DNA from: a virus
Length of the DNA: 64,000 bases
Virus record (IMG/VR): IMGVR_UViG_3300025401_000022
Span: 1-64,000 of that record
Reading direction: 5' to 3' (one strand)
The position numbers and the translations under genes are program-made. Positions within the stretch are counted from its first letter, which is position 1. Every line of letters begins with the position of its first letter. The notes under the pieces were generated by a model. The model was not told where the DNA came from, made no database searches, and worked only from the letters and a program-made list of their open reading frames with translations. Below, piece by piece: positions 662 to 36,436 of this stretch.

Positions 662-670
662 GAAAAAATC

Positions 671-2449: not shown

Positions 2450-2450
2450 A

Positions 2451-3079: not shown

Positions 3080-3080
3080 A

Positions 3081-4070: not shown

Positions 4071-4078
4071 GGTTAAAA

Positions 4079-6052: not shown

Positions 6053-6288
6053 TGTCAAACGGATTATGGTCTACCTCGCAAAACAACCCTTATCCGCAGT
6101 CCGAATTTTTGGATGCCACGACTAAAAGGCCGACTCGTGCATGGCAACAATTCTTTTTAAATTTGCTGAACTTTACTTCTGCCACTTCCGCTACAGCAGG
6201 GTCGGCTAGTTTGCCAGCTAACCCTGTGGGCTTTATTAATGTGACTGTTAATGGTAAAAAATACAAAGTTCCCTATTATAATGTTTAG
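6052..6288 (+). CDS. Small virion protein
   Basis: Coupled to the gp10-like gene; PTRAWQQFF motif. Confidence 0.55.
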   Translation: MSNGLWSTSQNNPYPQSEFLDATTKRPTRAWQQFFLNLLNFTSATSATAGSASLPANPVGFINVTVNGKKYKVPYYNV

Positions 6289-6290
6289 TA

Positions 6291-6698
6291 ATGATACTCA
6301 AACGAATAATGCCAGACGAAGTGGCTCAAAAGTGGTCACAAGTATCTGATTTTATTGAAAAAGCTCTAGTGTATGCAGATGGTGATTATACGATTGACCA
6401 AGTAAGATTAGCAGTAGTTAGTAATCAATGGTTACTAATAGGAGTGTATGAAGGTGAGTTTATTAAAGGTGCTTTAACAGTTTCATTTATAAATATGCCT
6501 AACGACAGAATTGGTTTTGTAACTGCAATAAGTGGCAAAAACATCTTTACTAAAAACACTTACAAGCAATTAGTTGATATTTTGAAACAATTTGGAGCAA
6601 CCAAAATACAAGGTGGAGTTCGAGAATCCATTGCTAGATTATGGCGAAGAGTAGGGTTTAAAGAACGATACATTCTTGTGGAGAACGATATATGTTAA
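6291..6698 (+). CDS. Possible GNAT-fold protein (position of P22 gp14)
   Basis: 135 aa before the first ejection gene; ARLWRRVGF resembles the GNAT C-terminal motif. Confidence 0.45.
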   Translation: MILKRIMPDEVAQKWSQVSDFIEKALVYADGDYTIDQVRLAVVSNQWLLIGVYEGEFIKGALTVSFINMPNDRIGFVTAISGKNIFTKNTYKQLVDILKQFGATKIQGGVRESIARLWRRVGFKERYILVENDIC

Positions 6699-8095: not shown

Positions 8096-8096
8096 T

Positions 8097-9494: not shown

Positions 9495-9497
9495 AAA

Positions 9498-11126: not shown

Positions 11127-11671
11127 TGGCCGTCTTACTCTCACCTATTGGTAATGGATTTCAATTCTTTACTACTACAGGCTTGCCTTTGGCTGGTGGC
11201 TTACTTTATAGCTATCAAGCAGGCTCTAGCACTCCTTTGGCAACCTATACTGATTCCACAGGCGCTGTTGCTAACACAAACCCTATTGTTTTAGGAACAG
11301 ATGGCAGACCCCCTTACGAAGTATGGCTTACTTCAGGATATTCCTATAAGTTTGTATTAGCTACGTCTACCAATGCAGTAATTCAGACTTACGACAATAT
11401 CTATCCTATTCCTAATGCATCAACTACAGGTACTACTGTGCCTGCTGGTGCAATTATTATGTGGTCAGGCTCTATTGGTTCTATTCCAAGTGGCTATGTT
11501 ATTTGTAATGGTTCTAATGGCACACCGGATTTAAGGGACTCATTTATTGTAGGCTCAGGCAACAGCTACGGAGTTGGTTCTACTGGTGGCTTTGTCAATA
11601 GCGGAGTTATGACTAGCTCAGGAACAAATATTCCTCTTTACTATTCATTAGCGTTTATTCAAAAGACTTAA
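11126..11671 (+). CDS. Short tail protein (head-binding-like N-terminus plus tail-collar domain)
   Basis: G.PLAGG.LY.Y.AG...NTNPIVL..DGR; PAGAIIMWSG..IPSGY.ICNG.NGTPDLRD collar motif. Confidence 0.7.
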   Translation: MAVLLSPIGNGFQFFTTTGLPLAGGLLYSYQAGSSTPLATYTDSTGAVANTNPIVLGTDGRPPYEVWLTSGYSYKFVLATSTNAVIQTYDNIYPIPNASTTGTTVPAGAIIMWSGSIGSIPSGYVICNGSNGTPDLRDSFIVGSGNSYGVGSTGGFVNSGVMTSSGTNIPLYYSLAFIQKT

Positions 11672-11680
11672 GGTGTTACT

Positions 11681-11911
11681 ATGTCTTTTGATTTTGACCC
11701 TGTGAAATATGGCGTTTTATGGCAAAAGGTAGAAGGTTACGAAGCCAAATTTAATGAGATTTCCAAAAAGCAAGATAAGATGGAATCTCAGTTAGAAGAA
11801 CTAGTAGCACTTGCCAATAAAAGTCGTGGTGGCTTTTGGATGGGCATGGCTATTGTTTCAGGTATTAGCGGATTAATTAGTTTTTTTGCAGGATTATGGC
11901 ATGGAAAATAA
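11681..11911 (+). CDS. Coiled-coil protein with C-terminal TM segment (holin-like)
   Basis: Coiled coil then hydrophobic C-terminus; lysis-region context. Confidence 0.5.
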   Translation: MSFDFDPVKYGVLWQKVEGYEAKFNEISKKQDKMESQLEELVALANKSRGGFWMGMAIVSGISGLISFFAGLWHGK

Positions 11912-12260
11912 TACATTTGATTCAGCAAAAGAAGTAGCTGGTCGTTCTATCGGACAGCATGGATTGGCTTACATTACCGCCATCATTGTCATTTCTGTGG
12001 CAGCTAGTATTTTTCTAGATACCGCCAAGATTGCTGCAGTTATTGGTATGGCTGGCGGTGCAATCATGGCTATCATCAATATGATGAACGCTGTTTCAGG
12101 TACAACTGAAAAAGAAGAAAAGCCTGAATTTACTGTTATTCAGCAGTTAATTGAGAGGCTTGACCATTTAGCCGACAAAGAACCCCCTATGTCTGTTACT
12201 GTAGATGGTGATAAGGTAACAGTTACTAAAGGCTCAGATACTATTACTACCAAAAAATGA
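11901..12260 (+). CDS. Two-TM membrane protein
   Basis: Two hydrophobic segments; lysis region. Confidence 0.5.
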   Translation: MENNTFDSAKEVAGRSIGQHGLAYITAIIVISVAASIFLDTAKIAAVIGMAGGAIMAIINMMNAVSGTTEKEEKPEFTVIQQLIERLDHLADKEPPMSVTVDGDKVTVTKGSDTITTKK

Positions 12261-12499
12261 AACTATTAAAAGACATTTTGACCGAGGACAATAATGAAAC
12301 CTATTGTGCAGCTAGGGTTTGCGCTGTTGCTGCTCTTTTTGGTTTCTTGGCTATTGCTATCATTCATGTTTTACATGGTGGCTCTATGGATTTCTCACAA
12401 CTTGGTGTGGGATTTGGCACAGTTTTGGGTGGCTCAGGTGTCATGATTGGTGCTAAAGCTGCAACTCAAAAGGATGACGATGTTCCCCCTTCCAATTAG
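12257..12499 (+). CDS. Putative holin
   Basis: Two TM segments; similar to 47666..47890; upstream of spanin and endolysin. Confidence 0.55.
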   Translation: MKLLKDILTEDNNETYCAARVCAVAALFGFLAIAIIHVLHGGSMDFSQLGVGFGTVLGGSGVMIGAKAATQKDDDVPPSN

Positions 12500-12887
12500 T
12501 TCTTATTTAATGATTGGCTTGGCGGTAATTGCTATGGCTGGAGTTGGCTATGGTAGATATGAGCACAATGTTTTTGAAGAATATAAAGCTGAAGAAATTA
12601 AAAATGCCAGAGAAAAAGAACATCAAATGCAAGATGCTACAGACCTAATAAGGAAAGACAAAGATGCTCAAATCAATGCTATTAACAATCAACTTGCTGA
12701 TGCTCTTATCGAGTTGCGGAACAGGCCCAGTAGGACAAACCAAAGTTCCAACAATGGACAAAATGGAACTGGGGCAACCCTTTTTGCCGAGGATGCAGAA
12801 TTTCTTATCAGGGAAGCTACCAGAGCAGACCAAATAAGAACTGCCCTTGATGCTTGTTATAAACAATATGACGAAGTAACTAAATGA
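12480..12887 (+). CDS. Rz-like spanin
   Basis: N-terminal TM plus coiled coil; homologue of 47890..48300 (IRKDKDAQI..INN.LADAL..LR.RPSR). Confidence 0.6.
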   Translation: MFPLPISSYLMIGLAVIAMAGVGYGRYEHNVFEEYKAEEIKNAREKEHQMQDATDLIRKDKDAQINAINNQLADALIELRNRPSRTNQSSNNGQNGTGATLFAEDAEFLIREATRADQIRTALDACYKQYDEVTK

Positions 12888-13480
12888 CCAATGAACAATT
12901 ACAAGCCCTTGGCATTGATGCTAAGTGGCTGCAACCTTTAAATGATACTTTTGCCAAATATGGCATTGATACTTCAAAGCGACAAGCTGCATTTATAGGA
13001 CAAGCACAACATGAGTCCAACAACTTTAAAACCCTTGAAGAAGGACTTTCCTACTCAGCTCCTAGACTTATGGCTGTTTGGCCCAGTAGATTTCCTAGTC
13101 TGGATGTGGCTAATCAATATGCGAATAATCCTGAAAAATTAGCTAATAAGGTTTATGGCGGTAGAGCAGACCTTGGTAATACAGAAGATGGTGATGGGTT
13201 TAAATTTCATGGCAGAGGCATTTTTCAGCTTACTGGGCGGTCTAATGTGACTGTCTGTGGCAATGCCTTAGGACAACCCTTTGCGGAGCATCCTGAGCTT
13301 CTTTTAGAGCCTGAATGGGCTTGCCTATCCGCAGGATGGTATTGGAATCGAAAGCAGTTAAATTTATTGGCTGACGATGAAAACTGGGAAACCATGACTA
13401 AGCGGATTAATGGCGGTACAGTAGGCTTAGATGACCGGATAAACCGCATCCATAAAGCAATCGATATTTTAGGGTCTTAA
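12884..13480 (+). CDS. Endolysin, glycoside hydrolase family 19
   Basis: AAFIGQ..HES, GDG.KF.GRG.FQLTGR.N, TKRINGG..GL.DR motifs. Confidence 0.9.
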   Translation: MTNEQLQALGIDAKWLQPLNDTFAKYGIDTSKRQAAFIGQAQHESNNFKTLEEGLSYSAPRLMAVWPSRFPSLDVANQYANNPEKLANKVYGGRADLGNTEDGDGFKFHGRGIFQLTGRSNVTVCGNALGQPFAEHPELLLEPEWACLSAGWYWNRKQLNLLADDENWETMTKRINGGTVGLDDRINRIHKAIDILGS

Positions 13481-15687: not shown

Positions 15688-16058
15688 ATTGCTCTAGCGA
15701 AAAGAATTGCGTATTTGTCCACAGTTTTCATATCAAAATAAGTTTTATACACTTCTTCTATTTCCTCATCTGTTAGTGTCTTTGCTTTCAACGCCTCTAT
15801 TTCAGCTTGATGTAGTTTTATTGCTTCTTTGGCAAAAAGACATTCTTCATCCAAAAGAATATAACTTTCTTCTTCCATTATTAATTTTTCTTTCAACGCT
15901 TCTATTTCAGCTTGTTGCTGGCGTAGCATGGTGGCTGCTTGTTCTAATTGGTCAGCAAGTCTATCATTAGCACCTTCTTGTACGCTTTTACGACTTGTTG
16001 CCTTTCTGCGAATTGACGCACGGATTTCCATTGCATCAGCTAGTTCATTTGCGTCCAT
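15663..16058 (-). CDS. Hypothetical protein of the 'ELAD...LRKAQEK' family
   Basis: Internal QAEIEALK duplication; LTDEEI...FARAILRKAQEK. Confidence 0.6.
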   Translation of the reverse strand: MDANELADAMEIRASIRRKATSRKSVQEGANDRLADQLEQAATMLRQQQAEIEALKEKLIMEEESYILLDEECLFAKEAIKLHQAEIEALKAKTLTDEEIEEVYKTYFDMKTVDKYAILFARAILRKAQEK

Positions 16059-16254
16059 TATTCACCTCATCAATTTTTTCTTGGTAACTACTTGTTCCGG
16101 ACCATTCGTCGTTGATGTACGAGATACACAACGCTTTTAGTCGCTCTATTTCGGCTAGTTGGCTATCAATCAGCTCTTTTACTTTTGGTAGCATTGTGTG
16201 TACTACCGCCAACTGTGTAACGATTCCCTCGTTTGCTATTTGATTTGCGTTCAT
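16045..16254 (-). CDS. Hypothetical protein
   Basis: Coupled gene run. Confidence 0.5.
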   Translation of the reverse strand: MNANQIANEGIVTQLAVVHTMLPKVKELIDSQLAEIERLKALCISYINDEWSGTSSYQEKIDEVNNGRK

Positions 16255-16418
16255 TTGTTTTCCTTTATCAATGGTACACCGCCGGTGTCGCCTTTGAATG
16301 CTTCTTTCTCTGCATAATCCTTGATTGCTTTTTTGAATATAGCGTCCCAGTTATTCTCAAACTGCTCCTTTGGTACGCCTAGTGGGCGACGTGCATCGCC
16401 TTTGCCTCCGTCTCTCAT
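16251..16418 (-). CDS. Hypothetical protein (GGKGD.RRP...F..NWD.IF type)
   Basis: AGGAG RBS before ATG at 16418. Confidence 0.5.
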   Translation of the reverse strand: MRDGGKGDARRPLGVPKEQFENNWDAIFKKAIKDYAEKEAFKGDTGGVPLIKENK

Positions 16419-16419
16419 A

Positions 16420-16668
16420 CTATCTCCTAAACTGTGGTACTGGTTTACGTCTGCCAAATGTTTTGCGAACCTTTAACGCCCATATACTACCGTGTACTTT
16501 GTTGCGCCAGCCTTGATGGGCACGGCGGATCTTTTGCATCTTAAAGCGAGCTTTAATACGCTTTGGCTTATTATAGTAGTCTTGAATAAGCCGCCGCTTT
16601 CCAGCGTCACCAAAGATGACGCCGAACAAGCTACGCTTAATGATGCGTGGAAATCTAAACTTCTTCAT
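16420..16668 (-). CDS. Highly basic (Arg/Lys-rich) protein
   Basis: Start MKKFRF inferred from overlap with the upstream ORF. Confidence 0.45.
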   Translation of the reverse strand: MKKFRFPRIIKRSLFGVIFGDAGKRRLIQDYYNKPKRIKARFKMQKIRRAHQGWRNKVHGSIWALKVRKTFGRRKPVPQFRR

Positions 16669-16804
16669 CTTGTGGTTTGCCATTAAGCGCAAACTGTGCG
16701 TACTGCCACGCTGTATCGCGGACCTCTGAGGGGCTTGCCCCTCTGGCAATGAGGCCCATGGTGGCCGCGCAGGCCAGTGTGAATAGTTGCTCTTCTTGTG
16801 TCAT
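16655..16804 (-). CDS. Small hypothetical protein (MTQEEQLF..., 49 aa)
   Basis: ATG overlaps the primase stop; below the ORF-track cutoff, translated by hand. Confidence 0.45.
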   Translation of the reverse strand: MTQEEQLFTLACAATMGLIARGASPSEVRDTAWQYAQFALNGKPQDEEV

Positions 16805-19113
16805 TAAAATATCTCTCCGTTGTCTAGTCTTTCAATACTGTCAATGTACCTCTGAGCCTTTGAGTTCAGTCGTACGCCCTTATAAATGTGCTGCCGCTGG
16901 CCACCGATGCGCGTGGAGTCCGATTCAACGTGGTGCTCCTGAATCGCCGCCAAGAATCTGCGCTTGAATGACAGCTCGTTGCCCGGCGTGATGCTCTTGT
17001 GCAGAGCCCAGCGCTTGTAGCACGCGAAGATGTCGTCCTTGTTCACGGTGTACTCGGGGCCAATCTCGAGCACGTCGTCGATGAACGAGCCGATCGGATT
17101 ACCAAGTTCGCTCATCAGATCCAAGTACTCTCTGCCCGACTTAGGCTGGATAAAGTTGCCACCGCGTGCCAATCGTCTACGTTGCCCCTCGATCACCCAG
17201 TTAAAGATGCCCGAGAGCTCTGACCTGAGCTTAGATGATAGCGAGGTGTCTTCGTTGTTGTAGAACGACTTGCTCATCTTTAGCACCAGCATGCGCCCAG
17301 TGAGCGCGTTGGAGTTCTCAGTCAGCTGGAGTACCTCGTTGCTGTACACGATTATTCGTGTGGGTAGGTATCCGTTCCATGACTCCTTGTTCTTTCTATT
17401 AACTGTAACAGTGTCGCCGCCAACAATTCTAAGGAGTTGGCTAACAACAGCACTACGGTTACGCTCAGGGGCACGGGCGTCTGTGAAAGAAGCGAGTAGC
17501 TTACCCAGCCAAGGTTGCAGACCAAAAGTATCACACAATTCCTCCAGTTGTGGTGCCACTGTATTGTGTTGGCCTAGTAGGTCAACGAGCACCTTGTTAA
17601 TAGTTCCCTTGCCGCTACGCCTAGGACCGATCACGTTCAAAAACTTCTGCTCTGAGGTGTCCCCTGAGAGTATGTAGCCAAAGTACTCCTGCAGTAGGTC
17701 CTTGCTCTCTTGGTCCTCGCCCCACACGTCGTCCAAGAACTTCATCCACTGTGGGCAGTCCTTAGTGGGGTCGTACTCGAACGGCAGTGAGTTGTACGTG
17801 AAGAATCCCAGTGAGTGCGCAAACAGTACCAGCTGGTCCATCTGAAACAGTCCGTTGACCATGCTGATTAACTTCTCAGCTGGCGGGTTGGACTGCGCGT
17901 AACCGTCTAACCAAACTGGTGGCTTGGTGTTCGGGTCGTTGGCCAAGTGCACGATGGACTTGATCGCGTCAATCGCGGCGTTCACCACTGCAGGGTTGGC
18001 GTTGAACGGCACCAGCGCGCCCTTCTTGTCTAGCTTCTGACACTTGTCCAAGAACTTATACAGCTGGGAGCGCACCGTTGCCTCCTCGATGTTGGTGTAG
18101 TGCGTGCCGGTGTACACGAAGAACTCTTCGGCGTAGTGCACCAGCTTATAGCCATCTTCCACCGTGTACATCGATGACAAAAACTTCCTTGCGTGGTCTA
18201 GCGGGTTGGAGATCTCGAGCACGATCTCTCCGTTGGCCAGAGCCACCTGCAGCTTTTTTTGGTTCACCTTAAATATCAGGGAGCGCAACGTGATGCCCTG
18301 ACCCTTAAAGCTGTTCCACTTCGTCGTGCATGAGTTGATGCCCGTCACGGTGTACTTGTTGGACTGCGCACTCCAGCGCTCCCACGCCTCTAGTGCCTCG
18401 ACGTCCTTGTTAAACTGGTGGTGCAAAGCCATACCCACGTTCTTCCAGTCATCGTAGCCACAGTCAGGGTCCAGCTCTGAGAGTAGCTCCGTTTCAACGC
18501 GGAGCAAATCCCAGCCCTCGACTGGCGGCGTGTAGTTTGCAAAGTCGTCATCTGACTGGCGCATTGCCCGTGGTGGTACGTGCGCAGTGAGGTCCTGAGG
18601 CTCGTTGGGCACGTCGCCTGCAATCTTGTGCCCCGTCATGGTGAAGTAACGGCTCTTAGGATACACCTCCAGCCCGATGGTGTGGTCAACGTGGGCCGAG
18701 TGCAGGTCTGCGCGGGTGAATATCTTGATGCCAGTACCGCTTGGTGACACCTCAACGTAGCCCTTCACGTTGTCCATGATGGACTGTGCTAGGTCGTTTA
18801 GATCACCGCTCTCAGGATCACGGCAATCGTCAATGTCAATGCCAATGAGGTTATCATCCCCAGTAAAAACGAATCCAATACCGTCAAAATTACCATTCTC
18901 GTATGCCTTCTGTGCCGTGAAAAAATCTGTCCAAGTTGCTGGGTTGGTTGATGAGGCAAACTTGCCAGTGCTCTGTACTGGGAGCTTGCTCCACTTTTGC
19001 GACTCACCGTCGCCGACTAGCGTGTACTTCCACAGGCAAAACCGTGGTATGCGCTTCAAGTCGCTCGGTATCGCATTAAAATCTACCTCTAATGCTGGCG
19101 GTTTTTGTAACAT
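16804..19113 (-). CDS. Primase-polymerase / PriCT-2 / SF3 (D5/P4-type) helicase
   Basis: AEP motifs GIGF...IGIDIDDC and YVEVSPSGTG; W..VGMALH...WERWS PriCT-2; Walker A GPRRSGKGT. Confidence 0.88.
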   Translation of the reverse strand: MLQKPPALEVDFNAIPSDLKRIPRFCLWKYTLVGDGESQKWSKLPVQSTGKFASSTNPATWTDFFTAQKAYENGNFDGIGFVFTGDDNLIGIDIDDCRDPESGDLNDLAQSIMDNVKGYVEVSPSGTGIKIFTRADLHSAHVDHTIGLEVYPKSRYFTMTGHKIAGDVPNEPQDLTAHVPPRAMRQSDDDFANYTPPVEGWDLLRVETELLSELDPDCGYDDWKNVGMALHHQFNKDVEALEAWERWSAQSNKYTVTGINSCTTKWNSFKGQGITLRSLIFKVNQKKLQVALANGEIVLEISNPLDHARKFLSSMYTVEDGYKLVHYAEEFFVYTGTHYTNIEEATVRSQLYKFLDKCQKLDKKGALVPFNANPAVVNAAIDAIKSIVHLANDPNTKPPVWLDGYAQSNPPAEKLISMVNGLFQMDQLVLFAHSLGFFTYNSLPFEYDPTKDCPQWMKFLDDVWGEDQESKDLLQEYFGYILSGDTSEQKFLNVIGPRRSGKGTINKVLVDLLGQHNTVAPQLEELCDTFGLQPWLGKLLASFTDARAPERNRSAVVSQLLRIVGGDTVTVNRKNKESWNGYLPTRIIVYSNEVLQLTENSNALTGRMLVLKMSKSFYNNEDTSLSSKLRSELSGIFNWVIEGQRRRLARGGNFIQPKSGREYLDLMSELGNPIGSFIDDVLEIGPEYTVNKDDIFACYKRWALHKSITPGNELSFKRRFLAAIQEHHVESDSTRIGGQRQHIYKGVRLNSKAQRYIDSIERLDNGEIF

Positions 19114-19136
19114 GACTCTCCTCTTTTCTTGCCCTT

Positions 19137-19146
19137 ACTAATACGC
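19137..19146 (-). promoter_or_regulatory. GCGTATTAGT motif upstream of primase-helicase
   Basis: Exact copy of the recurrent intergenic motif, 24 bp before the ATG. Confidence 0.7.
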
Positions 19147-19183
19147 AAATCGGCTGACCTGCGTTTCACATTATGAAATATTG

Positions 19184-19419
19184 AAAAATGCTGCACTGCA
19201 TCCTGGATTTGGATCCACCATACAAATGAGAATGATTCTTATTTGGTCTATACAAATCAATAACTTACGAGCTCGGATCCACAGTATCCATAGTATCCAC
19301 CCTTTATTCAGGTTATTTTTTATTTTAAAAAAATAAAAAATAAATATCTGGAGTAAAAGTGAAAACTACTGTGGATACTGTGGATCGTACTCAAAATATC
19401 TATTGGAATCAAGCACTTA
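19184..19419. other. Origin-like element L (iteron arms around an AT core, IHF-consensus sites)
   Basis: ATCCA(C/T)AGT repeats at 19276-19300 and inverted at 19367-19386; A/T-only core; WATCAANNNNTTR at 19255-67 and 19407-19. Confidence 0.6.
19223..19245. promoter_or_regulatory. Fur-box-like palindrome
   Basis: CAAATGAGAATGATTCTTATTTG, a near-perfect inverted repeat resembling GATAATGATAATCATTATC. Confidence 0.55.
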
Positions 19420-19478
19420 CCGTGCCACCCTTTGGCACCTGTATCCTGCCACTATCCTGCCACTTTTTAAAATCGGGC

Positions 19479-19544
19479 CATAGAGGCGTTTAAAATGACT
19501 GGGTAAGGGGGTAGCCTCACATAGCCCTAAAAAACGCCTCTATG
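19479..19544. repeat. 13-bp inverted repeat
   Basis: CATAGAGGCGTTT (19479-91) / AAACGCCTCTATG (19532-44). Confidence 0.8.
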
Positions 19545-19547
19545 AGG

Positions 19548-19820
19548 CTATAAACAGACTATGGTGCCGATGCTGGTCTTCGTGCACCTGACAATCGTGC
19601 CGTCAGGCATCTGCACAACCTGAGCCAGCGCACTGGCGATGTGAAAGCCAAAGTACAGAATAAACGCCACGATGGCAATCCAGCCATACTTATTCCAGCG
19701 GTGGTACTGGCGCTCACGCTCTAAAAAGATAAAGCGCTCGGGTTTGCCGTAGTCTAGCTCAATCCCCCTGCAGTCGCAAACACTGCGCCCTTGGTTACAA
19801 TTTCCTGAGCACCCCTTCAT
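19548..19820 (-). CDS. Small membrane protein with Cys-rich N-terminus
   Basis: CSGNCNQGRSVCDC followed by a TM segment. Confidence 0.55.
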   Translation of the reverse strand: MKGCSGNCNQGRSVCDCRGIELDYGKPERFIFLERERQYHRWNKYGWIAIVAFILYFGFHIASALAQVVQMPDGTIVRCTKTSIGTIVCL

Positions 19821-20014
19821 TTGTTCACCTCGTATCCTAAGTTGTCTTTAATAAATTTGTACGCCCACTTTCTAAACGCGATGCGGTTCTCGCTGGTCTG
19901 CTCCTCCCGCTCGTCCCACTTAGCCTCGACCAAGAAGTTACCCTCCAAGTCGTTGAACTCAATCGCGGTAATGTTGCCGTCCTTGTCATAAATATCCGTT
20001 GGTATTGCTTTCAT
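19817..20014 (-). CDS. Hypothetical protein
   Basis: ATGA-coupled, RBS. Confidence 0.55.
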   Translation of the reverse strand: MKAIPTDIYDKDGNITAIEFNDLEGNFLVEAKWDEREEQTSENRIAFRKWAYKFIKDNLGYEVNK

Positions 20015-20346
20015 GTTATCTCCTTAATTAGTGGTGACTTATCCTTCCATGAGTCGGTGTCACCGTAGTCACCCCTAATCATGCTCATGCGCTCCTCTTT
20101 TCTAAACGCTGGCTCGATGGCCCACCATGCTAGGCTGGCCTCCTTGTACTCGACCCACGCGTCATTTTCTAAAAACATGGGATGGTTGAGCCCAGCCACG
20201 TCCACGGTGCACACCACGTCACTGGTGGGTTGCCACCCCTTGGCGTTCTTCCTGCGGTACTGCCCCAGCGAGACGTTGTCTCGGGCGCGGATAAAGCGTA
20301 CGTATGCGCGGGTCTGTTCGTCTGTTAATTTAATCATCGTGTTCAT
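20011..20346 (-). CDS. Hypothetical protein
   Basis: Coupled gene run. Confidence 0.55.
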   Translation of the reverse strand: MNTMIKLTDEQTRAYVRFIRARDNVSLGQYRRKNAKGWQPTSDVVCTVDVAGLNHPMFLENDAWVEYKEASLAWWAIEPAFRKEERMSMIRGDYGDTDSWKDKSPLIKEIT

Positions 20347-20893
20347 CTTCCATCTTGTCTAATTGTAGGGCGTCTAATGACGTTGGTTCTTGCAACATAT
20401 AAAACTTTAACTGGTTTACGCGCTTGGTTGTTTTCCCAAGCACCTTGGCCAGCTCCTGAACCGTTGGCGTTCGGCCTAGGGTCTGAGTCAGTGCACGCTC
20501 GGTGTACGTCATCTTGCGTATCTCTTCGCGCACCTTAATCGGTATGCGAACTAGGTTCTCCTCGTCGTCCTGCCCACGCTCTACCCCACGCAGGATAAAC
20601 CGCTTGGCAAAGGTCGCGAACTTGGCGCCGTTCTTTGGCACCCACTGACGTGCCGCCTTGATGAGCGCCTCGTTGCCCATGCCAATCAAGTCCTCCTGAG
20701 GCGTGCGTGAGTGGTTCCACGCGGTCAGCTTGCGCACCGTGTACACCACAAAGCGCAGGTTGTGCGTCACTAGCCTGTCCAGTGCCTGCTCGTCACCTTG
20801 CTGAATGCGACGTGACAGCTCGTACTCCTCTGCCGAGTCCAGCACTGGTATGCCGTACAGTGACTGCAGGTAGTCAGTTAAAAAGTCGTTCAT
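20330..20893 (-). CDS. Truncated sigma70-family factor (regions 1.2, 2 and 3; no region 4)
   Basis: DYLQSL..IPVL..AEEYELSRRIQQGD..ALDRLVTHNLRFVV, DLIGMGNEALIKAA, KFATFA, VRIP, LGRTPTVQELA, PTSLD; stops after an acidic 3.2-like tail; start MNDF inferred. Confidence 0.85.
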   Translation of the reverse strand: MNDFLTDYLQSLYGIPVLDSAEEYELSRRIQQGDEQALDRLVTHNLRFVVYTVRKLTAWNHSRTPQEDLIGMGNEALIKAARQWVPKNGAKFATFAKRFILRGVERGQDDEENLVRIPIKVREEIRKMTYTERALTQTLGRTPTVQELAKVLGKTTKRVNQLKFYMLQEPTSLDALQLDKMEDEHDD

Positions 20894-21147
20894 TATGAGT
20901 CCATCCATATAAGAGTTGTTGCCACGGCCGCGGCTATTAGCAATGGCCACAGCTGTGGAAAGAAAAAACACAACACAATAAATCCAGCCAGTGCCACCAT
21001 GCCCCTATAACCTATCTTGGCAAACAACACTGGAAAGCCCTTGTAAGCCACGTAAAGCAGTTGTGCCGCGGCTATTAGTAACGATACTCCGACGATAAAT
21101 TGCACCTTGTGTCCTTTCGATGGTTTATGCCCGTGATGTCCGCTCAA
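20893..21147 (-). CDS. Small multi-TM membrane protein
   Basis: Hydrophobic 84 aa; stop overlaps the sigma start. Confidence 0.55.
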   Translation of the reverse strand: MSGHHGHKPSKGHKVQFIVGVSLLIAAAQLLYVAYKGFPVLFAKIGYRGMVALAGFIVLCFFFPQLWPLLIAAAVATTLIWMDS

Positions 21148-21323
21148 AATGGTGCCTCCTGCAGTATGGCTACTGCGACTTGGTACGGGTTTGCTTTAGG
21201 CTCGCGCGGTAGTGTCACCAAGCTCATACCATTGGTTAGGTAGGGGGTAGCCTCCAGCTTTGATACAAACTTCCTGCAGGCCCCTCCAAACTCATCCATG
21301 AGGACGTAACGATATTGGCTCAT
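21144..21323 (-). CDS. Hypothetical protein (MSQYRY...QEAPF)
   Basis: ATGA overlap gives a start at 21323. Confidence 0.5.
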   Translation of the reverse strand: MSQYRYVLMDEFGGACRKFVSKLEATPYLTNGMSLVTLPREPKANPYQVAVAILQEAPF

Positions 21324-21520
21324 GGTATGAATGCCTCGCGCTTGAGCTGGTTGCCCAGCTTGTCCTGCAAGTACATCACCACGTCCCACTCGCCGTCGTC
21401 GCGGCCGCGTGAGCGCTCCGCGTTGGTCAGCTTGTCAGCGTACCAGTAAAGCGCACGCTTGATAGCTAGGAACTCCTCCGCGTCGAGGTTTAACTCAAAG
21501 CGGTTAGTGTTGATCTTCAT
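21320..21520 (-). CDS. Hypothetical early protein
   Basis: Coupled gene run. Confidence 0.5.
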   Translation of the reverse strand: MKINTNRFELNLDAEEFLAIKRALYWYADKLTNAERSRGRDDGEWDVVMYLQDKLGNQLKREAFIP

Positions 21521-21786
21521 GCTGACACCTTGCGCACGACGACTGCGTCCACTGCCTTAATTGCTGTGACCTTAGCCACAGTAGTCACGTCGCAAAACTC
21601 GCGAACTAATTTAGGGTCAATGCTGGCTCGGTCGTAGTGTTGCACCTCGGCAATGAAGTCCATTCCTTGGTACTTACCTACACCGCGAGCAATGAGCTCA
21701 GCCTTGAGCTTACGAGCTGTAGATTCGAGCTCAGCGATCTGCTGGTTAATGATTCCTAAGTCGTCGATCATGTTATCTGTAATCAA
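21517..21786 (-). CDS. Hypothetical early protein
   Basis: AAGGAG RBS; N-terminal coiled coil. Confidence 0.55.
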   Translation of the reverse strand: MITDNMIDDLGIINQQIAELESTARKLKAELIARGVGKYQGMDFIAEVQHYDRASIDPKLVREFCDVTTVAKVTAIKAVDAVVVRKVSA

Positions 21787-21815
21787 TTTAATTCTCCTTT
21801 GTGTGTTTTCTAAAA

Positions 21816-22082
21816 TTATACCACGACTGATTCGTGCATTGTTTTGTTGATCTCGCGTATCAGGCTTGCGTCCTCAAACCACATAACGCGTGCGTACGTC
21901 CTGCGTGTTGGCTTGCGCGGTGTGCTTTCAGGCGCGTCGCCTGTGTGCACGAACAACGCGAAGGCGTAGCACGCCAGCTTGTCAGTCGCGCACTTGGTTG
22001 CGTGCACGCACCCGTCGCACGGCATTGGCTCATTTAAAAACTTTCTCATTTTAAAGTTCATAGTATTACTCCTGATTATCAA
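21816..22082 (-). CDS. Four-Cys (CxxC-x5-C-x6-C) putative metal-binding protein
   Basis: PCDGCVHATKCATDKLAC; true start probably the internal MNFK. Confidence 0.5.
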   Translation of the reverse strand: MIIRSNTMNFKMRKFLNEPMPCDGCVHATKCATDKLACYAFALFVHTGDAPESTPRKPTRRTYARVMWFEDASLIREINKTMHESVVV

Positions 22083-22260
22083 GTTGTTCTAGGTCTTCCT
22101 GCCACCATGCCATCACGGTGCATATATCGCTCCACTCTGCGTCGTACTGGGGATCTTGACCCTCAGGTATGCAGTCCTCGCGATACGCCTCTAGGGCACG
22201 CCAAATCGCGCCAAATTGGCTGTCTCTGTCATTACTGGTTACTGGTTTAAATGTCGCCAT
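22066..22260 (-). CDS. Hypothetical early protein
   Basis: AGGAG RBS; acidic. Confidence 0.55.
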   Translation of the reverse strand: MATFKPVTSNDRDSQFGAIWRALEAYREDCIPEGQDPQYDAEWSDICTVMAWWQEDLEQLDNQE

Positions 22261-22447
22261 CTTGATCTCCTGTGTCCCAATTGCTTACTGCCACAAATAC
22301 CTGCTGGATGTCGCACTTTGGAAACTTCTCACGCGCGATACTTACAGCCTCATGCGCGTCCTGCGCCCAAAATTGATGCCAGTCATAGTGGCGTGGCTCT
22401 TCGTGTGTTGCCAGTTCAATTGCAAATACTTTAGTCTCGTAGCTCAT
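22247..22447 (-). CDS. Hypothetical early protein (MSYETK...)
   Basis: GAGGAG RBS before ATG at 22447. Confidence 0.5.
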   Translation of the reverse strand: MSYETKVFAIELATHEEPRHYDWHQFWAQDAHEAVSIAREKFPKCDIQQVFVAVSNWDTGDQDGDI

Positions 22448-22451
22448 GGTG

Positions 22452-22604
22452 TTACTCCTCATCAAATTCAAAGTTAATAGTTTGCTTGCAGTGCAGGCAC
22501 TGCTCCACATATATGATGCCGTTGTCACTGACCGCCTCAGTCTGAGCCCCATCGTATGGGCAGGTGAACGGAGCGTCAGCGTCCGCGATAAACACGTCAA
22601 TCAT
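22452..22604 (-). CDS. Small zinc-ribbon-like protein (CPYD...CLHC, 50 aa)
   Basis: Translated by hand; ATGA overlap with the upstream ORF. Confidence 0.45.
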   Translation of the reverse strand: MIDVFIADADAPFTCPYDGAQTEAVSDNGIIYVEQCLHCKQTINFEFDEE

Positions 22605-22879
22605 TTTGGTCCTTTCTTGCTTTCTCTGAGCACGCGTAGATCTTCGCGATACTGCTCCTTGTTCTCTTCGTACTGGCGACGTGTCATCTCTACGCCACGC
22701 TCACCACTGATTGTAGTCGGATCGGGTCGGCACACTAAAATCATGTCGTCAGGTGACTCGACTGGTACCTCGTACACTGGCTCCCATGGCACGTCAGGTG
22801 CGCTGGGTTGTTTGGACCAAGTCCGTGACACGTAGCGTGCCTCGTCACGTGCCCTACAAATTGCGTTAAGTGATCTCAT
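22601..22879 (-). CDS. Hypothetical early protein
   Basis: GGAGG RBS. Confidence 0.5.
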   Translation of the reverse strand: MRSLNAICRARDEARYVSRTWSKQPSAPDVPWEPVYEVPVESPDDMILVCRPDPTTISGERGVEMTRRQYEENKEQYREDLRVLRESKKGPK

Positions 22880-22880
22880 G

Positions 22881-23132
22881 TTAAGCCTCCCATACAGTTA
22901 GCTGGGCAGGGTTCTGCCATTCAGCGAATAAATTATACTTGCGCAGTGTCTCAGTAATCACTGGTGACACGCCGAACTCCCAGTCAGGGATCATGTGCCC
23001 GTCATAGTAGTCACAGAAGTCGTGACCGTCCTCAGCACTAATCCAAAAATTAGGCTGGTCGTCGTGGTACTCACGTACCGCTACGCCTTGTTTTTTGAGC
23101 GCGTTGAACGCGTTGCGAAAAGCTCTTTTCAT
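22881..23132 (-). CDS. Hypothetical early protein
   Basis: GGAGG RBS; coupled. Confidence 0.55.
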   Translation of the reverse strand: MKRAFRNAFNALKKQGVAVREYHDDQPNFWISAEDGHDFCDYYDGHMIPDWEFGVSPVITETLRKYNLFAEWQNPAQLTVWEA

Positions 23133-23356
23133 ACTGCCTCCTGTTTCAGAAATAAATTATATAAACCATCTTTGACCTGAGCCAAAGTGTTGCGTACTAC
23201 ATTGGCTGAGCTCGAGAGCTCGACAGCCAACTCACTATCACCACGCGCATTGGCGCAGTCTGCGAGCTCAGTGAGCTCTTTAATATGCGCTCTGAGCGCA
23301 TTTTCCATCAACAACGCTTGGCGTTGTGTCAGGAATATATCAAAACCTTTTACCAT
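23129..23356 (-). CDS. Hypothetical early protein
   Basis: AGGAGG RBS. Confidence 0.5.
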   Translation of the reverse strand: MVKGFDIFLTQRQALLMENALRAHIKELTELADCANARGDSELAVELSSSANVVRNTLAQVKDGLYNLFLKQEAV

Positions 23357-23364
23357 ACATCCTC

Positions 23365-23667
23365 CTATTTGATATGAATAAATTTAAAGTGGTCTTTAAT
23401 AAACTTATTAGTATGCGCAATAGCCTGCTTGCGGATCTCGTTGAGCTCCTTGGCGATGTTGTCACCGCTCAGCTCCTTGATCCAGCCACGACCGTACCAC
23501 TGCTCGTGGTTAGGGTGGTAGTCCAGCTCGATGCAGTTCTCACCCCACGTGATGCAGAACGACTTGCCACCCTGCTTTAGGTACTCAGCAAGCGTGCGCA
23601 TGATGACTGCACGTGATGGCTTGCGCTTGTTGAACTCGATGTCAATTACTGGGAATAGTTGGCTCAT
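23365..23667 (-). CDS. Hypothetical early protein
   Basis: GGAG RBS. Confidence 0.55.
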   Translation of the reverse strand: MSQLFPVIDIEFNKRKPSRAVIMRTLAEYLKQGGKSFCITWGENCIELDYHPNHEQWYGRGWIKELSGDNIAKELNEIRKQAIAHTNKFIKDHFKFIHIK

Positions 23668-23712
23668 AAAATCTCCGTTGTGTTGATGTGTCTATTATAC
23701 TGGGTCACTGGC

Positions 23713-24108
23713 TCACTGAGTGAGCTCGTATGGTTTATCCCAGTCGCCTACGTTCAGGTGAAAGTAGTACGCGGTGTCAAAGTAGTCCACCTGCGCGTCC
23801 GACTTGTCATAGTAGTCCGCGCTCTTAAGCGCGTCAATGATCTCACCGATCACGCGCTGAGGGCGGTGTGTGAAGTGATCTTCGTACCAGTACGGGTTCA
23901 CTTGGATGTGGTTGCGTACGTGCAAGTCAAAGTCTTTGCCAGTGGTCTGCTTGAAGTTCTCCATGAAGTCCACTGGGCCACTGCGTAGGGTGCAGGTGAT
24001 GCTCATGTGATCCTGCACGCGCAGGCTGTACTTGATGCCCAGTGGTTTGAGCACCTTGTCTAGGTTAGCCTTGATGATCTTCTTCTTGTCTTGGTTCATG
24101 TATGCCAT
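23713..24108 (-). CDS. Early protein with LPD29-like motif
   Basis: YYDKSDAQVDYFDTAYY matches the recalled YDNSD.MTDYF polyvalent-protein motif. Confidence 0.55.
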   Translation of the reverse strand: MAYMNQDKKKIIKANLDKVLKPLGIKYSLRVQDHMSITCTLRSGPVDFMENFKQTTGKDFDLHVRNHIQVNPYWYEDHFTHRPQRVIGEIIDALKSADYYDKSDAQVDYFDTAYYFHLNVGDWDKPYELTQ

Positions 24109-24119
24109 GGTGTAGCTCC

Positions 24120-24251
24120 TTATTGGTTATGGTGTAGTTCGTCCATCAGCATGGCCCACTCAATCTCTGCGTCGGTCTGCTCAAGCTCGTCAACGCCGTA
24201 GCGTCTCTCTAGCTCTTCAAGTACTTCGGATAGTGGTAGATCTTTGGTCAT
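24120..24251 (-). CDS. Small acidic early protein (43 aa)
   Basis: Translated by hand; GAGGAG RBS; ATGA overlap. Confidence 0.5.
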   Translation of the reverse strand: MTKDLPLSEVLEELERRYGVDELEQTDAEIEWAMLMDELHHNQ

Positions 24252-24424
24252 GTTAGCTCCTCAAGTTTATGTAGTACATCAGTATAGCCGTCGTTACGTT
24301 GCAGGACGCCGTCCTTGGCGCGTTTAGTAGCTTGGCGTAGGTTGTTGTCAGTGAACTCCCAGTAATGCGTCACAGCCCCGTCTATGGGGTCTGTGTACGT
24401 TGCTCTGTATCGTTTGTTGGTCAT
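24248..24424 (-). CDS. Small early protein (58 aa)
   Basis: Translated by hand; AAGGAGG RBS. Confidence 0.5.
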   Translation of the reverse strand: MTNKRYRATYTDPIDGAVTHYWEFTDNNLRQATKRAKDGVLQRNDGYTDVLHKLEELT

Positions 24425-24433
24425 GTTGCCTCC

Positions 24434-25078
24434 TTATGCGGTTTGTAAAGTGCGCCAAGAGCGCGGTGACATCCAAGATTTTAACACCCTGCCAGTACTC
24501 TCTTGCGTGTAGTTGAACCACAAGCGCTGTCCGTCTTGCTGTACTGCTGTCATCACTAACCCCTTGGCGTTGACGCGCTTGTCACCAGCCTGAATGCGCT
24601 CGGCTGGTACTGGCTTAGCTACTACTGCCAGCTCAGTGCCGTGCACCTTGTCAGCCAGTGCGCTCATCATCTTAGCGAAGTCTTCACCAGCCTTAGCACG
24701 GTACGTCATCAGGTAAGCCTCATGCTTACGAATGTCTTGTTGGCGATACTCAGGCGCATCGGCAAACAATGCCACTTCTGCTACGCGCTTGCCGTCTACC
24801 ATCTTCATGTAGCCAGTCTTGTACTCGACTGGGTCGTGCATGCCTGCCAGTGTCTCTTCTGCCTTGATGCGCAGGTCGTGGGCTTGTTTTAATACATCAG
24901 CGATCATGCTGTCAGTCTCAGTACGACGCTTTTCAAGCGGTGCGTAGCGGTGACCTTGACATACGCCTTGGAACCAGCCGTTAGCTACTGTGTAGCCGTG
25001 AGCTGAGATGCCGCCGCGTACTGCCTGCTGACGTCCACAGCACTGGCAGTGACCGCGTGTTTGAGTTGATGTTGCCAT
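24434..25078 (-). CDS. Early protein with Cys/His N-terminal metal-binding motif
   Basis: GHCQCCGR...HGY...GVC.G; AAGGAG RBS. Confidence 0.65.
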   Translation of the reverse strand: MATSTQTRGHCQCCGRQQAVRGGISAHGYTVANGWFQGVCQGHRYAPLEKRRTETDSMIADVLKQAHDLRIKAEETLAGMHDPVEYKTGYMKMVDGKRVAEVALFADAPEYRQQDIRKHEAYLMTYRAKAGEDFAKMMSALADKVHGTELAVVAKPVPAERIQAGDKRVNAKGLVMTAVQQDGQRLWFNYTQESTGRVLKSWMSPRSWRTLQTA

Positions 25079-25101
25079 GGTGATAGCTCCTTTAGTTAAT
25101 T

Positions 25102-25153
25102 GATCTCATCAGTACCAGCCTAACTGGTAGACAGCCGTGAGGCTGTTTCGATC
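25102..25153 (-). ncRNA. Type II hammerhead ribozyme
   Basis: Minus strand GAUC-GAAA-CAGCC-ucac-GGCUG-UC^-UACCAG-uuagg-CUGGUA-CUGAUGA-GAUC: complete core, three stems, GUC cleavage triplet. Confidence 0.9.
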
Positions 25154-25303
25154 TTAATATCCAGCATCCCACTGGCATCCGTTGTCAATCCATCGTGCCT
25201 CGTCTTTGGCAGTTTGATAGAGCTCATCTTGCCAGTCGTCATAACCTTGGCAATCTTCTGCGTTATCAAACTCTGTACCGTCTTTGGCGATGTATTTAGT
25301 CAT
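25154..25303 (-). CDS. Small acidic early protein (MTKYIAKDGTEF..., 49 aa)
   Basis: Translated by hand; AGGAG RBS; stop abuts the hammerhead. Confidence 0.6.
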   Translation of the reverse strand: MTKYIAKDGTEFDNAEDCQGYDDWQDELYQTAKDEARWIDNGCQWDAGY

Positions 25304-25325
25304 AGTGATTCTCCTATTGATTGGT

Positions 25326-25374
25326 TAGTACTGCCTCGAGAGCACTGCATTGCAATGCGCTCTGAGCACTACTA
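25326..25374 (-). other. Long imperfect hairpin (possible RNase III site)
   Basis: TAGTA...AGAGCACTGC / GCAATGCGCTCT...TACTA arms just upstream of an RBS. Confidence 0.45.
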
Positions 25375-25382
25375 TCTGCCAG

Positions 25383-25617
25383 CTGTTGGGACACCCTACC
25401 CCGCTGGTACTTCTTTAGAGCTCCATCCACTGTCTAGGCGGAGCTCACAGGCACCTATGCACCTGATCTGCCACACGTTTTACAAGGCTGGTACTTAGTC
25501 ACCTTGCACTGGTAACGCCAGTGAGTCGATCGCTCGGCTAGTGGGCTCTTCGCTTAGTTACTGCATGACACGCTGAACTGTGGCACCGCTCCTAATCACC
25601 TGACTGCCTTACAACAG
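25383..25617 (-). ncRNA. Candidate ~235-nt structured leader/ncRNA
   Basis: Starts just after TATAAT (25623-28, minus); closing CUGUUG/CAACAG; stems GAGCUCC/GGAGCUC, CACUGG/CCAGUG, UGCCACA/UGUGGCA, AAGGC/GCCUU. Confidence 0.5.
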
Positions 25618-26263
25618 ACTCCATTATAGTCACAGATATACGCATTTTGATTCCACGATGTGAAATAATTCGGAGTGTGCACTAACATAATTTGGTCACT
25701 GGAAAACGGACAGCTAACCCCCGTGGTTACTGGAATACTAGAGATCTCAGAGAGTTGAGGGGTAAGTATCACCTGATAGCGATCGCGTCTCTATGGCCCG
25801 ATTAGGGGCATTGCTGGGGATTCGCTATCGGGCAATATCGCCACCTCACGTCCACCCACCCTCTCAGGCTCTCGCGTGCGCGTACCACTCAGCCACACCA
25901 CCACACTGCACCACCGCGCCCACTCCACCACCCCACCAGCCTGCCGTCCCTAGCACACTGCCAGCTCAGCGTCAAGCAATACCCATACTGCCAGTGTGGT
26001 TATTAGCTGGGCCAGCACGCTGGGGCCCGCGTCCACTCTGTCCCCATTACTAGCAGTCAGGGTGGGTGAGTGCCAGCGTGGGGCGCGAGGGGCTGTTCCA
26101 CATTGTGAGATGGCGTTCCGCATTGTGGTGGCCCTCCTTTGTGGCGCAGGGTCCCCTTTTTGCCAAGTCGACACCCCGTGAGCAGGTACCCAGGGGGCCG
26201 GGCGGAGGCCCCAGGTCAAAGCTCAAGTTTGTATAATTTTTTATTATTTTTTGTTATATAGAC

Positions 26264-26466
26264 AAAAATGCTGCACTGCATCCTGGATATTTGCCAGGGT
26301 ACAATTTTGTATGGTGGCACGATAACCCGTTGATTTTAAAGAACATTATACTTACGATCCACAGTATCCACAGTAGTTTTACTTTTTTTTATTTTTTTTT
26401 AAAAAAGATAAAAAGATATATAGGGTAATAGTCGTTTAGACCCTGGATACTATGGATACTGTGGAT
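26264..26466. other. Origin-like element R (counterpart of element L)
   Basis: 25-bp direct repeat of 19184-19208; 26353-80 is the exact reverse complement of 19362-89; 26444-66 is the reverse complement of 19277-99; IHF consensus at 26323-35. Confidence 0.6.
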
Positions 26467-26539
26467 AGTGATTACTTTTAGTTATATAGACCGGCCGTTA
26501 ATATGATTTTTAGTTATATAGGCCAAAATGCAGCATTGT

Positions 26540-26549
26540 GCGTATTAGT
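26540..26549 (+). promoter_or_regulatory. GCGTATTAGT motif
   Basis: Upstream of the packaging operon. Confidence 0.7.
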
Positions 26550-29255: not shown

Positions 29256-29285
29256 GGGCGGATACGTCAAAAACAGCGTATTAGT
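29256..29285 (+). promoter_or_regulatory. GGGCG-N15-GCGTATTAGT promoter-like element
   Basis: Intergenic, before the portal gene. Confidence 0.75.
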
Positions 29286-32474: not shown

Positions 32475-32504
32475 GGGCGGATTTATCCGCCACAGCGTAT
32501 TAGT
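32475..32504 (+). promoter_or_regulatory. GGGCG-N15-GCGTATTAGT promoter-like element
   Basis: Includes the hairpin GGCGGA-TTTA-TCCGCC. Confidence 0.75.
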
Positions 32505-36406: not shown

Positions 36407-36436
36407 GGGCGCTTTGCCACAAAATAGCGTATTAGT
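36407..36436 (+). promoter_or_regulatory. GGGCG-N15-GCGTATTAGT promoter-like element
   Basis: Directly after the capsid terminator. Confidence 0.75.

Follow-up and report, generated by a model that had tools for sequence, protein, structure and literature searches.

What use does a phage have for a sigma70-family protein that stops short of region 4? The question is raised by a gene at 20330-20893, minus strand, in a window of 64,000 nucleotides (nt) that covers positions 1 to 64,000 of the IMG/VR virus record IMGVR_UViG_3300025401_000022, a genome of 80,308 bp rated 100% complete. A first-pass annotation of this window had offered two answers, a sigma factor of new specificity reading the motif GCGTATTAGT, or a decoy that occupies core polymerase or acts against sigma and shuts off host transcription. 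The analysis reported here leads to a fuller form of the first answer, in which the protein of 187 amino acids (aa) is probably one part of a split sigma factor that is assembled in stages on the host RNA polymerase and times middle and late transcription.

The sigma gene and its domains

The reading frame was taken from ATG 20893 to the stop codon at 20330-20332. A longer frame of 213 aa, the longest available, opens at GTG 20971; the 187-aa start is more likely because relatives begin with MNDFL or MSKNDFL and because the upstream open reading frame (ORF) overlaps the start of the sigma gene as ATGA at 20893. The domain content of the protein was read directly from profile searches. Pfam matches to Sigma70_r1_2 (PF00140, 31.1 bits, cut-off 22), Sigma70_r2 (PF04542, 27.6 bits, cut-off 24; 29.7 bits in a six-frame search of the genome) and Sigma70_r3 (PF04539, 34.9 bits, cut-off 25.3) were obtained, and Sigma70_r4 (PF04545) gave just 13.7 bits, falling on the helix-turn-helix (HTH) of region 3.1. 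The general phage sigma family phrog_351 of PHROGs matched at E 3.6e-30, and the best NCBIfam matches were RpoS and RpoD, with 96-97 bits, far under the equivalog cut-offs. Having region 1.2 and matching RpoD/RpoS best in sequence, the protein is of the primary-like (group 1/2) kind.

In a phmmer search against PDB, residues 2-183 were paired with residues 96-272 of SigA from B. subtilis and S. aureus (E ~1e-25), and the protein was found to stop opposite SigA EPVSLETPIGEEDD, where the region 3.2 finger has its acidic tip. Region 1.2 occupies roughly aa 5-35, region 2 aa 41-101 (20591-20773) and region 3 aa 123-175, and an acidic tail at aa 171-187 matches the first half of the 3.2 finger. The Pfam scores and the SigA alignment thus agree with what the first-pass annotation had seen: regions 1.2, 2 and 3, no region 4, and an acidic 3.2-like end. 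Its claim that the canonical region 2.3/2.4 sequence is replaced was likewise borne out, since SigA KFSTYATWWIRQAITR aligns with KFATFAKRFILRGVER in the phage protein. The AlphaFold (AF2) model has a mean predicted local distance difference test score (pLDDT) of 83.8 and falls below 50 in the last 17 residues alone. In a Foldseek search, this model came closest to the sigmaS chain of an E. coli initiation complex (E 1.3e-10, TMq 0.75), and sigmaA chains match too.

The gene that follows had been described as unrelated, and this was found to be correct. It encodes 111 aa of unknown function (20011-20346, minus strand), shares 17 nt with the end of the sigma gene, is present in 28 of 28 close relatives and has no match in Pfam or PHROG. 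A region 4 encoded by the adjoining gene was rejected because this neighbour matches no family. Six-frame searches of the 80,308-bp genome with PF04542, PF04545 and PF08281 returned no second sigma region 2 and no region 4.

Age of the truncation and conservation of the predicted DNA-reading residues

Over 380 database homologues of the 187-aa protein were obtained, the 120 listed being 68-97% identical to it, and nearly all homologues are 187-198 aa long. An exhaustive search of cluster representatives added more truncated sigma clusters (41-53% identity, 178-214 aa), beyond which the scores fall to ordinary full-length sigmas at ~35-40% identity. When 21 truncated members were aligned jointly with full-length sigmas, the truncated members shared one end point, also in clusters 36-53% identical, and the full-length sigmas continued into region 4. 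The same end point is seen down to ~40% identity, with 128 of 129 relatives ending within 0 to +4 alignment columns of the window protein, and the last 12 residues of the 129 family members hold on average 5.8 Asp/Glu. A recent truncation, which intact region 4 in relatives would have betrayed, is rejected because the relatives share this end point. Judged by these alignments, the truncation is ancient and selected.

The residues that would face DNA were compared in the same 129 members, with positions given in E. coli sigma70 numbering. F427 is invariant (129/129), position 430 is Y or F in 128 and position 432 is K in 125. Position 433 varies among P, G, R, K and Q, position 434 is F in 127, position 437 is R in 126 and position 440 is E in 120, with R441 again invariant (129/129). 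The region 3.0 helix carries K at 455 in 120 members, E458 in all 129 and R at 461 in 128. W433, W434, Q437 and T440, the -10-reading residues conserved in primary sigmas, are thus not kept in the family, where they are replaced by a variable residue, F, R and E, respectively. The first-pass annotation had emphasized the loss of the Trp dyad and the Gln; the changes are real and conserved, but they are less exotic than presented, as position 433 is merely variable and the aromatic residues at 427, 430 and 434 are kept together with R441. Because the altered residues of regions 2.3/2.4 and 3.0 are themselves conserved, the pattern fits a working DNA-reading surface of changed specificity and not a decaying fragment.

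This conservation bears on the decoy proposal, according to which the protein mainly occupies the host core polymerase or titrates a host factor, shutting off host transcription without directing initiation. Phage inhibitors of host polymerase are common, and such a role would suit an early gene whose product has neither region 4 nor the C-terminal half of the finger. Regions 2.3/2.4 and 3.0, the DNA contacts in sigma70, are nevertheless among the best conserved parts of the family, and a decoy is disfavoured as the main function because these predicted DNA-contact surfaces are so well kept.

A promoter motif that tracks the sigma clade

The motif GCGTATTAGT is present in nine exact copies in the window and 14 in the whole genome. 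At up to one mismatch, 13 copies were counted in the window against 3.8 expected, and 0 of 100 shuffles reached 13. All 14 exact copies are intergenic or at gene ends and point toward the downstream gene. The first-pass annotation had proposed to check the co-occurrence of gene and motif in related phages. It was found that exact GCGTATTAGT occurs in 27 of 28 related loci, namely all 27 in which the sigma is 75-96% identical; the lone locus with a 52%-identical sigma has no GCGTATTAGT, only GCGTATCAGT.

The anatomy of the motif and its conservation can be seen directly in 91 distinct sites, whose consensus is aaWTT-GCGTATTAGT-N5-Y-A-n-G. Every one of the 91 sites has T or C at motif position 16, 89 have A at position 17 and 83 have G at position 19. 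Among the 105 sites of a somewhat larger set, 40 have an ATG placed exactly at motif positions 17-19, and 38 of these ATGs begin ORFs 63-169 codons long, two of which are the first gene of the terminase operon and the gene of a partner protein described below. As a start codon at this place leaves no room for a leader, transcription presumably starts at the A of motif position 17, seven nt beyond the motif. Counted from this start, the motif covers -16 to -7, and ATTAGT within it covers -12 to -7. Start codons coincide with the predicted transcription start at window positions 26556 and 32511 and at genome position 75450; with the 38 such ORFs among relatives, this suggests that the phage group makes regular use of leaderless mRNAs.

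These data make it quite likely that the sigma piece drives the motif promoters. The first-pass option of a new-specificity sigma reading GCGTATTAGT is favoured by the conserved truncation and residues, by the motif tracking the sigma clade and by the sigma-type layout of the sites, the specificity itself being assigned by comparison. The decoy reading sits poorly with the same observations: the motif follows the sigma clade, and a genome in which no phage polymerase was found nevertheless carries 14 non-host-like promoters of sigma-type layout. As the main function of the protein a decoy is therefore improbable; it may be a side effect.

Two promoter classes

The sites fall into two classes. 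In 28 of the 91 sites, the pentamer GGGCG precedes the motif with a spacing of exactly 15 nt; of 29 upstream occurrences of GGGCG, 28 are at this N15 spacing and one is elsewhere. With +1 at motif position 17, the box covers -36 to -32, where a -35 element lies. The nucleotide directly before GCG is T in 63 of 63 box-less sites and mostly A in the box sites. A trade-off between the extended -10 element and the -35 element is classical, and the box-less T versus box pattern mirrors it. The classes differ also in their downstream part, with an ATG at +1 in 36 of 69 T-type sites vs 4 of 36 box sites. The possibility that GGGCG is one half of a terminator hairpin was rejected as a general account, a complementary spacer being present in 7 of 36 box sites.

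The two classes are distributed by gene function: TGCGTATTAGT, the T-type and box-less form, stands ahead of replication genes, and GGGCG-N15-GCGTATTAGT ahead of morphogenesis genes. In a comparison of three complete genomes whose proteins are 45-92% identical, the class was found to be conserved for each orthologous gene. T-type promoters precede the primase, the exonuclease, the single-stranded DNA-binding protein (SSB), the head gene of the terminase operon and the partner gene; the portal gene has a box promoter, and so do the orthologues of 73410-73667, 48937-49734, 36532-37101 and 55344-55724.

In the window, T-type motifs lie at 19137-19146 (minus strand), upstream of the primase-helicase gene 16804-19113, at 26540-26549 (plus), where ATG 26556 falls on motif position 17 and opens the leaderless first gene of the terminase operon, and at 48311-48320 (plus), upstream of 48349-48870. 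A further T-preceded motif at 41968-41977 (plus), upstream of 42051-43268, has GGACA at the box position. The complete GGGCG-N15-GCGTATTAGT arrangement, always on the plus strand, is found at 29256-29285 upstream of the portal gene, at 32475-32504 at the head of the head-gene operon, with an ATG at motif positions 17-19, at 36407-36436 upstream of 36532-37101, at 48860-48889 upstream of 48937-49734, and at 55288-55317 upstream of 55344-55724 and the large virion proteins. For the portal gene and 48937-49734, the GGGCG class is kept in 3/3 complete genomes.

A separately encoded region-4-like protein

Outside the window, at genome positions 75139-75450 on the minus strand, a gene of 103 aa begins with its ATG at position 17 of a T-type promoter. 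The family of this partner protein has 462 homologues, three of which are named "sigma24 family" by JGI, and Pfam Sigma70_r4_2 matches 8 of 26 family members, with a best E of 5e-5. The AlphaFold model of the partner has a pLDDT of ~90 over residues 50-109. In a VIA-align search, which is independent of Foldseek, most of the top rows are sigma region 4 domains (Z 6-7.2, root-mean-square deviation 1.6-3.4 A, 45-61 residues), from sigma28, CnrH, SigH, SigW, SigR, SigL, SigD and sigmaE; LuxR/GerE/NarL-type domains are also among the matches, at Z 4.5-6.1. Foldseek returned the same region 4 domains, and the nearest named clusters in the ESM Atlas are Sigma70_r4_2 proteins, with a score of 0.94. 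The N-terminus of the partner is invariant and acidic (PRLSDEELDPIEQDD), and its likeness to the 3.2 finger was judged by eye only. One relative (L059, G008:9616-9864) has a second, weaker partner paralogue, which matches the family profile at E 4.5e-14.

The existence of the partner gene and its co-occurrence with the sigma gene were observed directly. It is present in the records of 5/5 close relatives and in 3/3 larger records of divergent clades, that is, in 8/8 sigma-bearing records of at least 17 kb, and is missing just from two fragments that are 15-22% complete. It stands directly behind a T-type promoter in 3/3 complete genomes. In the reverse test, the sigma gene was found in 2 of 5 incomplete records that bear the partner; the majority of relatives are represented by fragments.

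Several weak lines that agree with one another make the region 4 assignment of the partner likely; that it acts as region 4 in trans we regard as an evenly balanced proposition. The first-pass statement that there is no region 4 accordingly holds for the sigma ORF but probably not for the phage, which has a conserved, separate region-4-like protein and carries GGGCG at about a third of its promoters.

Proposed mechanism and its alternatives

In the mechanism that we propose, the host holoenzyme would make the 187-aa piece from the early leftward operon, and regions 2.1/2.2 and 3 of this piece would bind the host core. The altered regions 2.4 and 3.0 would read (T)GCGTATTAGT at about -17 to -7, as an extended -10-type element with no -35 contact, and transcription would start at the A seven nt past the motif. 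Alone, the 187-aa piece would suffice at the T-type promoters, which serve the primase, the SSB, the exonuclease, the polymerase, the terminase operon and others. A T-type promoter would also turn on the partner gene along with the replication genes. The partner, with its acidic 3.2-like N-terminus and region-4-like HTH, would then dock at the usual region 4 site and read GGGCG at -36 to -32, whereby the second class, consisting of the portal, head, tail and ejection genes, would be switched on. We infer the core binding, the assignment of each protein to its promoter element and the temporal order. A wider statement is tentative and somewhat on the doubtful side: in a widespread group of uncultivated phages, a single sigma70-type factor built up in two instalments would time the whole programme, the early piece giving middle transcription that needs no -35 element and is largely leaderless, the 3.2-4 piece from one middle gene then adding GGGCG recognition for the late genes, and promoter class being set purely by the sigma domains present.

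A number of observations weigh against this mechanism. On the side of the sigma piece, several region 2.2 residues of its clade are altered at positions corresponding to Q406 and E407 of E. coli sigma70, which matter for core binding. The -10-like hexamer can be placed in two registers: with ATTAGT, T-7 is kept and A-11 is not, and with TATTAG, which requires one nt of slack, A-11 is kept and T-7 is not. On the side of the partner, the copy in the window genome is under every Pfam threshold and has no PHROG match. No fold match reaches Z 8, the Foldseek matches are at E ~1, and with a domain so small and helical they may reflect just a shared HTH arrangement. Comparison of the partner-family profile with PDB sequences gave chance hits only (a gas vesicle protein at E 0.33), and hhalign of the family against the C-termini of 106 full-length sigmas was negative, with a probability of 0.3%. 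No fused full-length or long forms of the partner were found when searched for, which is weak evidence. Three incomplete records carry the partner without the sigma gene; these are uninformative because the partner lies within a few kb of the contig end and the sigma gene is normally 8-25 kb away.

In a first alternative, the truncated sigma reads all 14 promoters alone and the 103-aa protein is an ordinary DNA-binding activator of LuxR/GerE or sigma4-like type, which binds GGGCG beside the polymerase and does not take the place of region 4 on the beta-flap. The LuxR/GerE/NarL-type folds among the partner matches would agree with it, as would the failure to link the partner at sequence level to the 3.2 linker and the absence of a fused form among those searched. 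Such an activator is nonetheless unlikely, since GGGCG occupies the exact -35 position in 28 of its 29 occurrences, since it is sigma region 4 in particular that the Pfam hits and the top fold matches point to, and since the conserved acidic N-terminus resembles, to the eye, the 3.2 finger.

The other alternative concerns the polymerase. Four large proteins of the virion block (1093, 996, 756 and 542 aa) have no recognisable domains, which counts against the proposed mechanism. In this alternative, a cryptic phage RNA polymerase hidden among the large unannotated virion proteins would read the motif, and the sigma-like protein would have some other role. The form of the promoter lends this some support, as it is long and nearly invariant and runs to +3 (A at +1, G at +3), recalling the promoters of single-subunit polymerases. 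A six-frame search of the genome with PF00940 was empty and thus gave no T7-like polymerase, although control genomes were empty too, so that this is a weak test; PHROG and Pfam scans of the large ORFs gave no RNA polymerase domain. A cryptic polymerase is also at odds with the non-conserved 5-nt gap between motif and start site, with the universal conservation of the sigma gene and with the -35-like box, which is anticorrelated with the upstream T in the manner known from -35-dependent and extended -10 promoters. We consider it very improbable, and the staged split sigma factor is the reading retained in what follows.

Divergent clades

The relatives outside the main clade offer hints that sigma and promoter co-vary, with too few sites for a test. 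The P0124 clade, of high guanine-plus-cytosine (GC) content and with a sigma 47-48% identical, is without GCGTATTAGT. Its partner gene (L057/L058, ~1480) is preceded by GCAYTATTTA-N6-ATG, that is, a 10-mer, six nt and the ATG, and a de novo search of this clade for a promoter motif and GGGCG boxes yielded nothing convincing beyond that single site. In the G008 clade, 17.5 kb of sequence holds three copies of TTT-GCATTAGTA (L065 at 738, 7156 and 15339), which stand ahead of the same orthologous genes; the distance from ATTAGT to ATG is kept, and the upstream part is 2 nt shorter. Box promoters could not be defined in the fragments of the divergent clades. For clusters P0127 and P0130, the search for related loci gave no viral contigs. 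A metagenomic protein of 2571 aa (P0129) was also encountered, residues 1019-1141 of which are 34% identical to sigma regions 1.2-2; an embedded sigma-like domain of this sort is unusual.

Comparison with known split and region-4-less sigma factors

T4 gp55 is a small phage protein of the sigma family (~185 aa) that lacks region 4 and reads a -10-type element only, and a second small phage protein, gp33, takes the place of region 4, activation requiring the gp45 sliding clamp. The family described here resembles this system in having a region-4-less sigma and a second small phage protein, here a proposed one, in the region 4 place. It differs in that gp55 is essentially region 2 only, whereas the sigma piece here has primary-like regions 1.2, 2 and 3, and in that gp33 does not bind DNA, whereas the partner here has an HTH fold and some of the promoters have a fixed -35-like box. 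No clamp gene was seen among the annotated ORFs, and no clamp-specific search was made. Given the separate region-4-like protein and the fixed -35-like box, the closest analogy is a split sigma and not a clamp-dependent, gp55-like factor. The T4 gp55/gp33 pair has itself been summarised as a split sigma (bioRxiv 10.64898/2026.10.01.756105).

In the Bacillus phage SPO1, the late sigma gp34 lacks the whole domain corresponding to sigmaA region 4, and gp33 is now described as an inhibitor of sigmaA-dependent transcription and not as a region 4 substitute (PMC13401047). The likeness to the family here lies in the use of the host polymerase with successive phage sigmas and in late transcription classically needing two phage proteins; in the phage searches, SPO1 gp34 had no sequence relation to the sigma family here. 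The region 2 and region 4 functions are placed on two polypeptides acting jointly on core in SigO-RsoA of B. subtilis and in Sig7-Sig8 of Tn916 (bioRxiv 10.64898/2026.10.01.756105). These pairs are of the extracytoplasmic function (ECF)-like type, limited to regions 2 and 4 and encoded by neighbouring genes, whereas the N-terminal piece here is RpoD/RpoS-like with regions 1.2 and 3, the break falls at the tip of the 3.2 finger, and the two genes are 8-25 kb apart and of different predicted temporal classes. The N-terminal piece would, moreover, work alone on one class of promoters.

Sigma70 without region 4.2 still initiates at extended -10 promoters by way of region 3.0 contacts. The present promoters are alike in that all 63 box-less sites have the extra upstream T and E458 of region 3.0 is invariant. 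They are different in that the element is TGCGTATTAGT and not TGnTATAAT, and the truncation is natural and family-wide. The gp36 of phiEco32/7-11, a single polypeptide of the regions 2 + 4 type, was absent from the homologues found for the 187-aa protein. It comes from a lytic phage of ~77 kb, which has its own sigma for middle and late promoters and a strongly conserved motif in the -10 region (PMC8948821). No paper describing the sigma family reported here was found in the literature.

In the known split or region-4-less sigmas, then, the pieces are minimal or ECF-like and act together. The sigma described here is primary-like and is interrupted at the 3.2 finger tip, a break shared by hundreds of metagenomic phages; its halves are of different predicted temporal class, and two promoter grammars match them. 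If the proposed mechanism is true, the family would be a natural experiment on the part that regions 3.2 and 4 play in initiation and in promoter escape, on how sigma domain content by itself can keep promoter classes apart, and on the frequency of leaderless mRNAs in phages. It would also offer compact orthogonal promoter and sigma parts. If the mechanism fails, there remains a well-defined, abundant and unannotated family of phage sigmas with a known candidate promoter.

Genome context and other observations

The genome encodes a terminase, a portal and collagen-like fibres, together with a family A DNA polymerase, a ribonucleotide reductase, a gp2.5-like SSB, an exonuclease, an endonuclease VII, a helicase and a primase-helicase. 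In the GenBank phage set there is no cultured close relative, the best sigma match there being under 40% identity. The terminase is 54% identical to that of a Manatee Spring contig and 41-42% identical to those of Caulobacter phages.

The sigma gene lies within a leftward early block that runs from 26,219 down to 13,585. A terminator-like hairpin with a T-run (19536-19548, minus strand) closes the early unit holding the sigma gene, and the sole GCGTATTAGT of the block is found just past this terminator, at 19,137-19,146, directly upstream of the primase gene. The block is highly variable, and just four of its genes are present in 26-28 of 28 relatives: those for the sigma, the 111-aa protein, a 65-aa protein and the primase. 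The 65-aa gene (19817-20014, minus strand), of unknown function, belongs to the sigma operon, occurs in 28/28 close relatives and in 7/10 loci of the P0124 clade, and has no family match. The 111-aa and 65-aa genes of this operon are candidates for accessory factors that bind polymerase or the host sigma. Early promoters sought by a simple sigma70 consensus scan were not above shuffles.

The early block also stands out in composition, with 50-53% GC at 16000-26000 vs 36-47% in the rest of the genome. A regulatory repeat made up of GATCCACAGTATCCACAGTAG, an A/T-rich tract and GGATACTATGGATACTGTGGAT occurs twice, in the two large non-coding gaps of the block (19250-19400 and 26340-26470), and may represent operators or an origin. 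Relatives have other short repeats in these gaps, such as TGCCACACTT, which occurs up to 19 times in 14 kb.

At the left end of the window, 1-13480 (plus strand) holds 18 ORFs of 36-44% GC, including tail-fibre-like and 'head closure Hc3'-like genes, with zero copies of the phage promoter motif. Of these ORFs, only one is matched in the complete relatives of 65 kb, and a host-like TTGATT...TAAAAC stretch lies ahead of the block at ~76-108. This block probably accounts for the size difference between 80 kb and 65 kb and looks like an acquired accessory module. Finally, AATACGACTCACTA at 48278-48291, at the end of ORF 47890-48300, equals a run of 14 bases from the core of the promoter for T7 RNA polymerase; in a genome with no detectable T7-like polymerase, the match may be due to chance.

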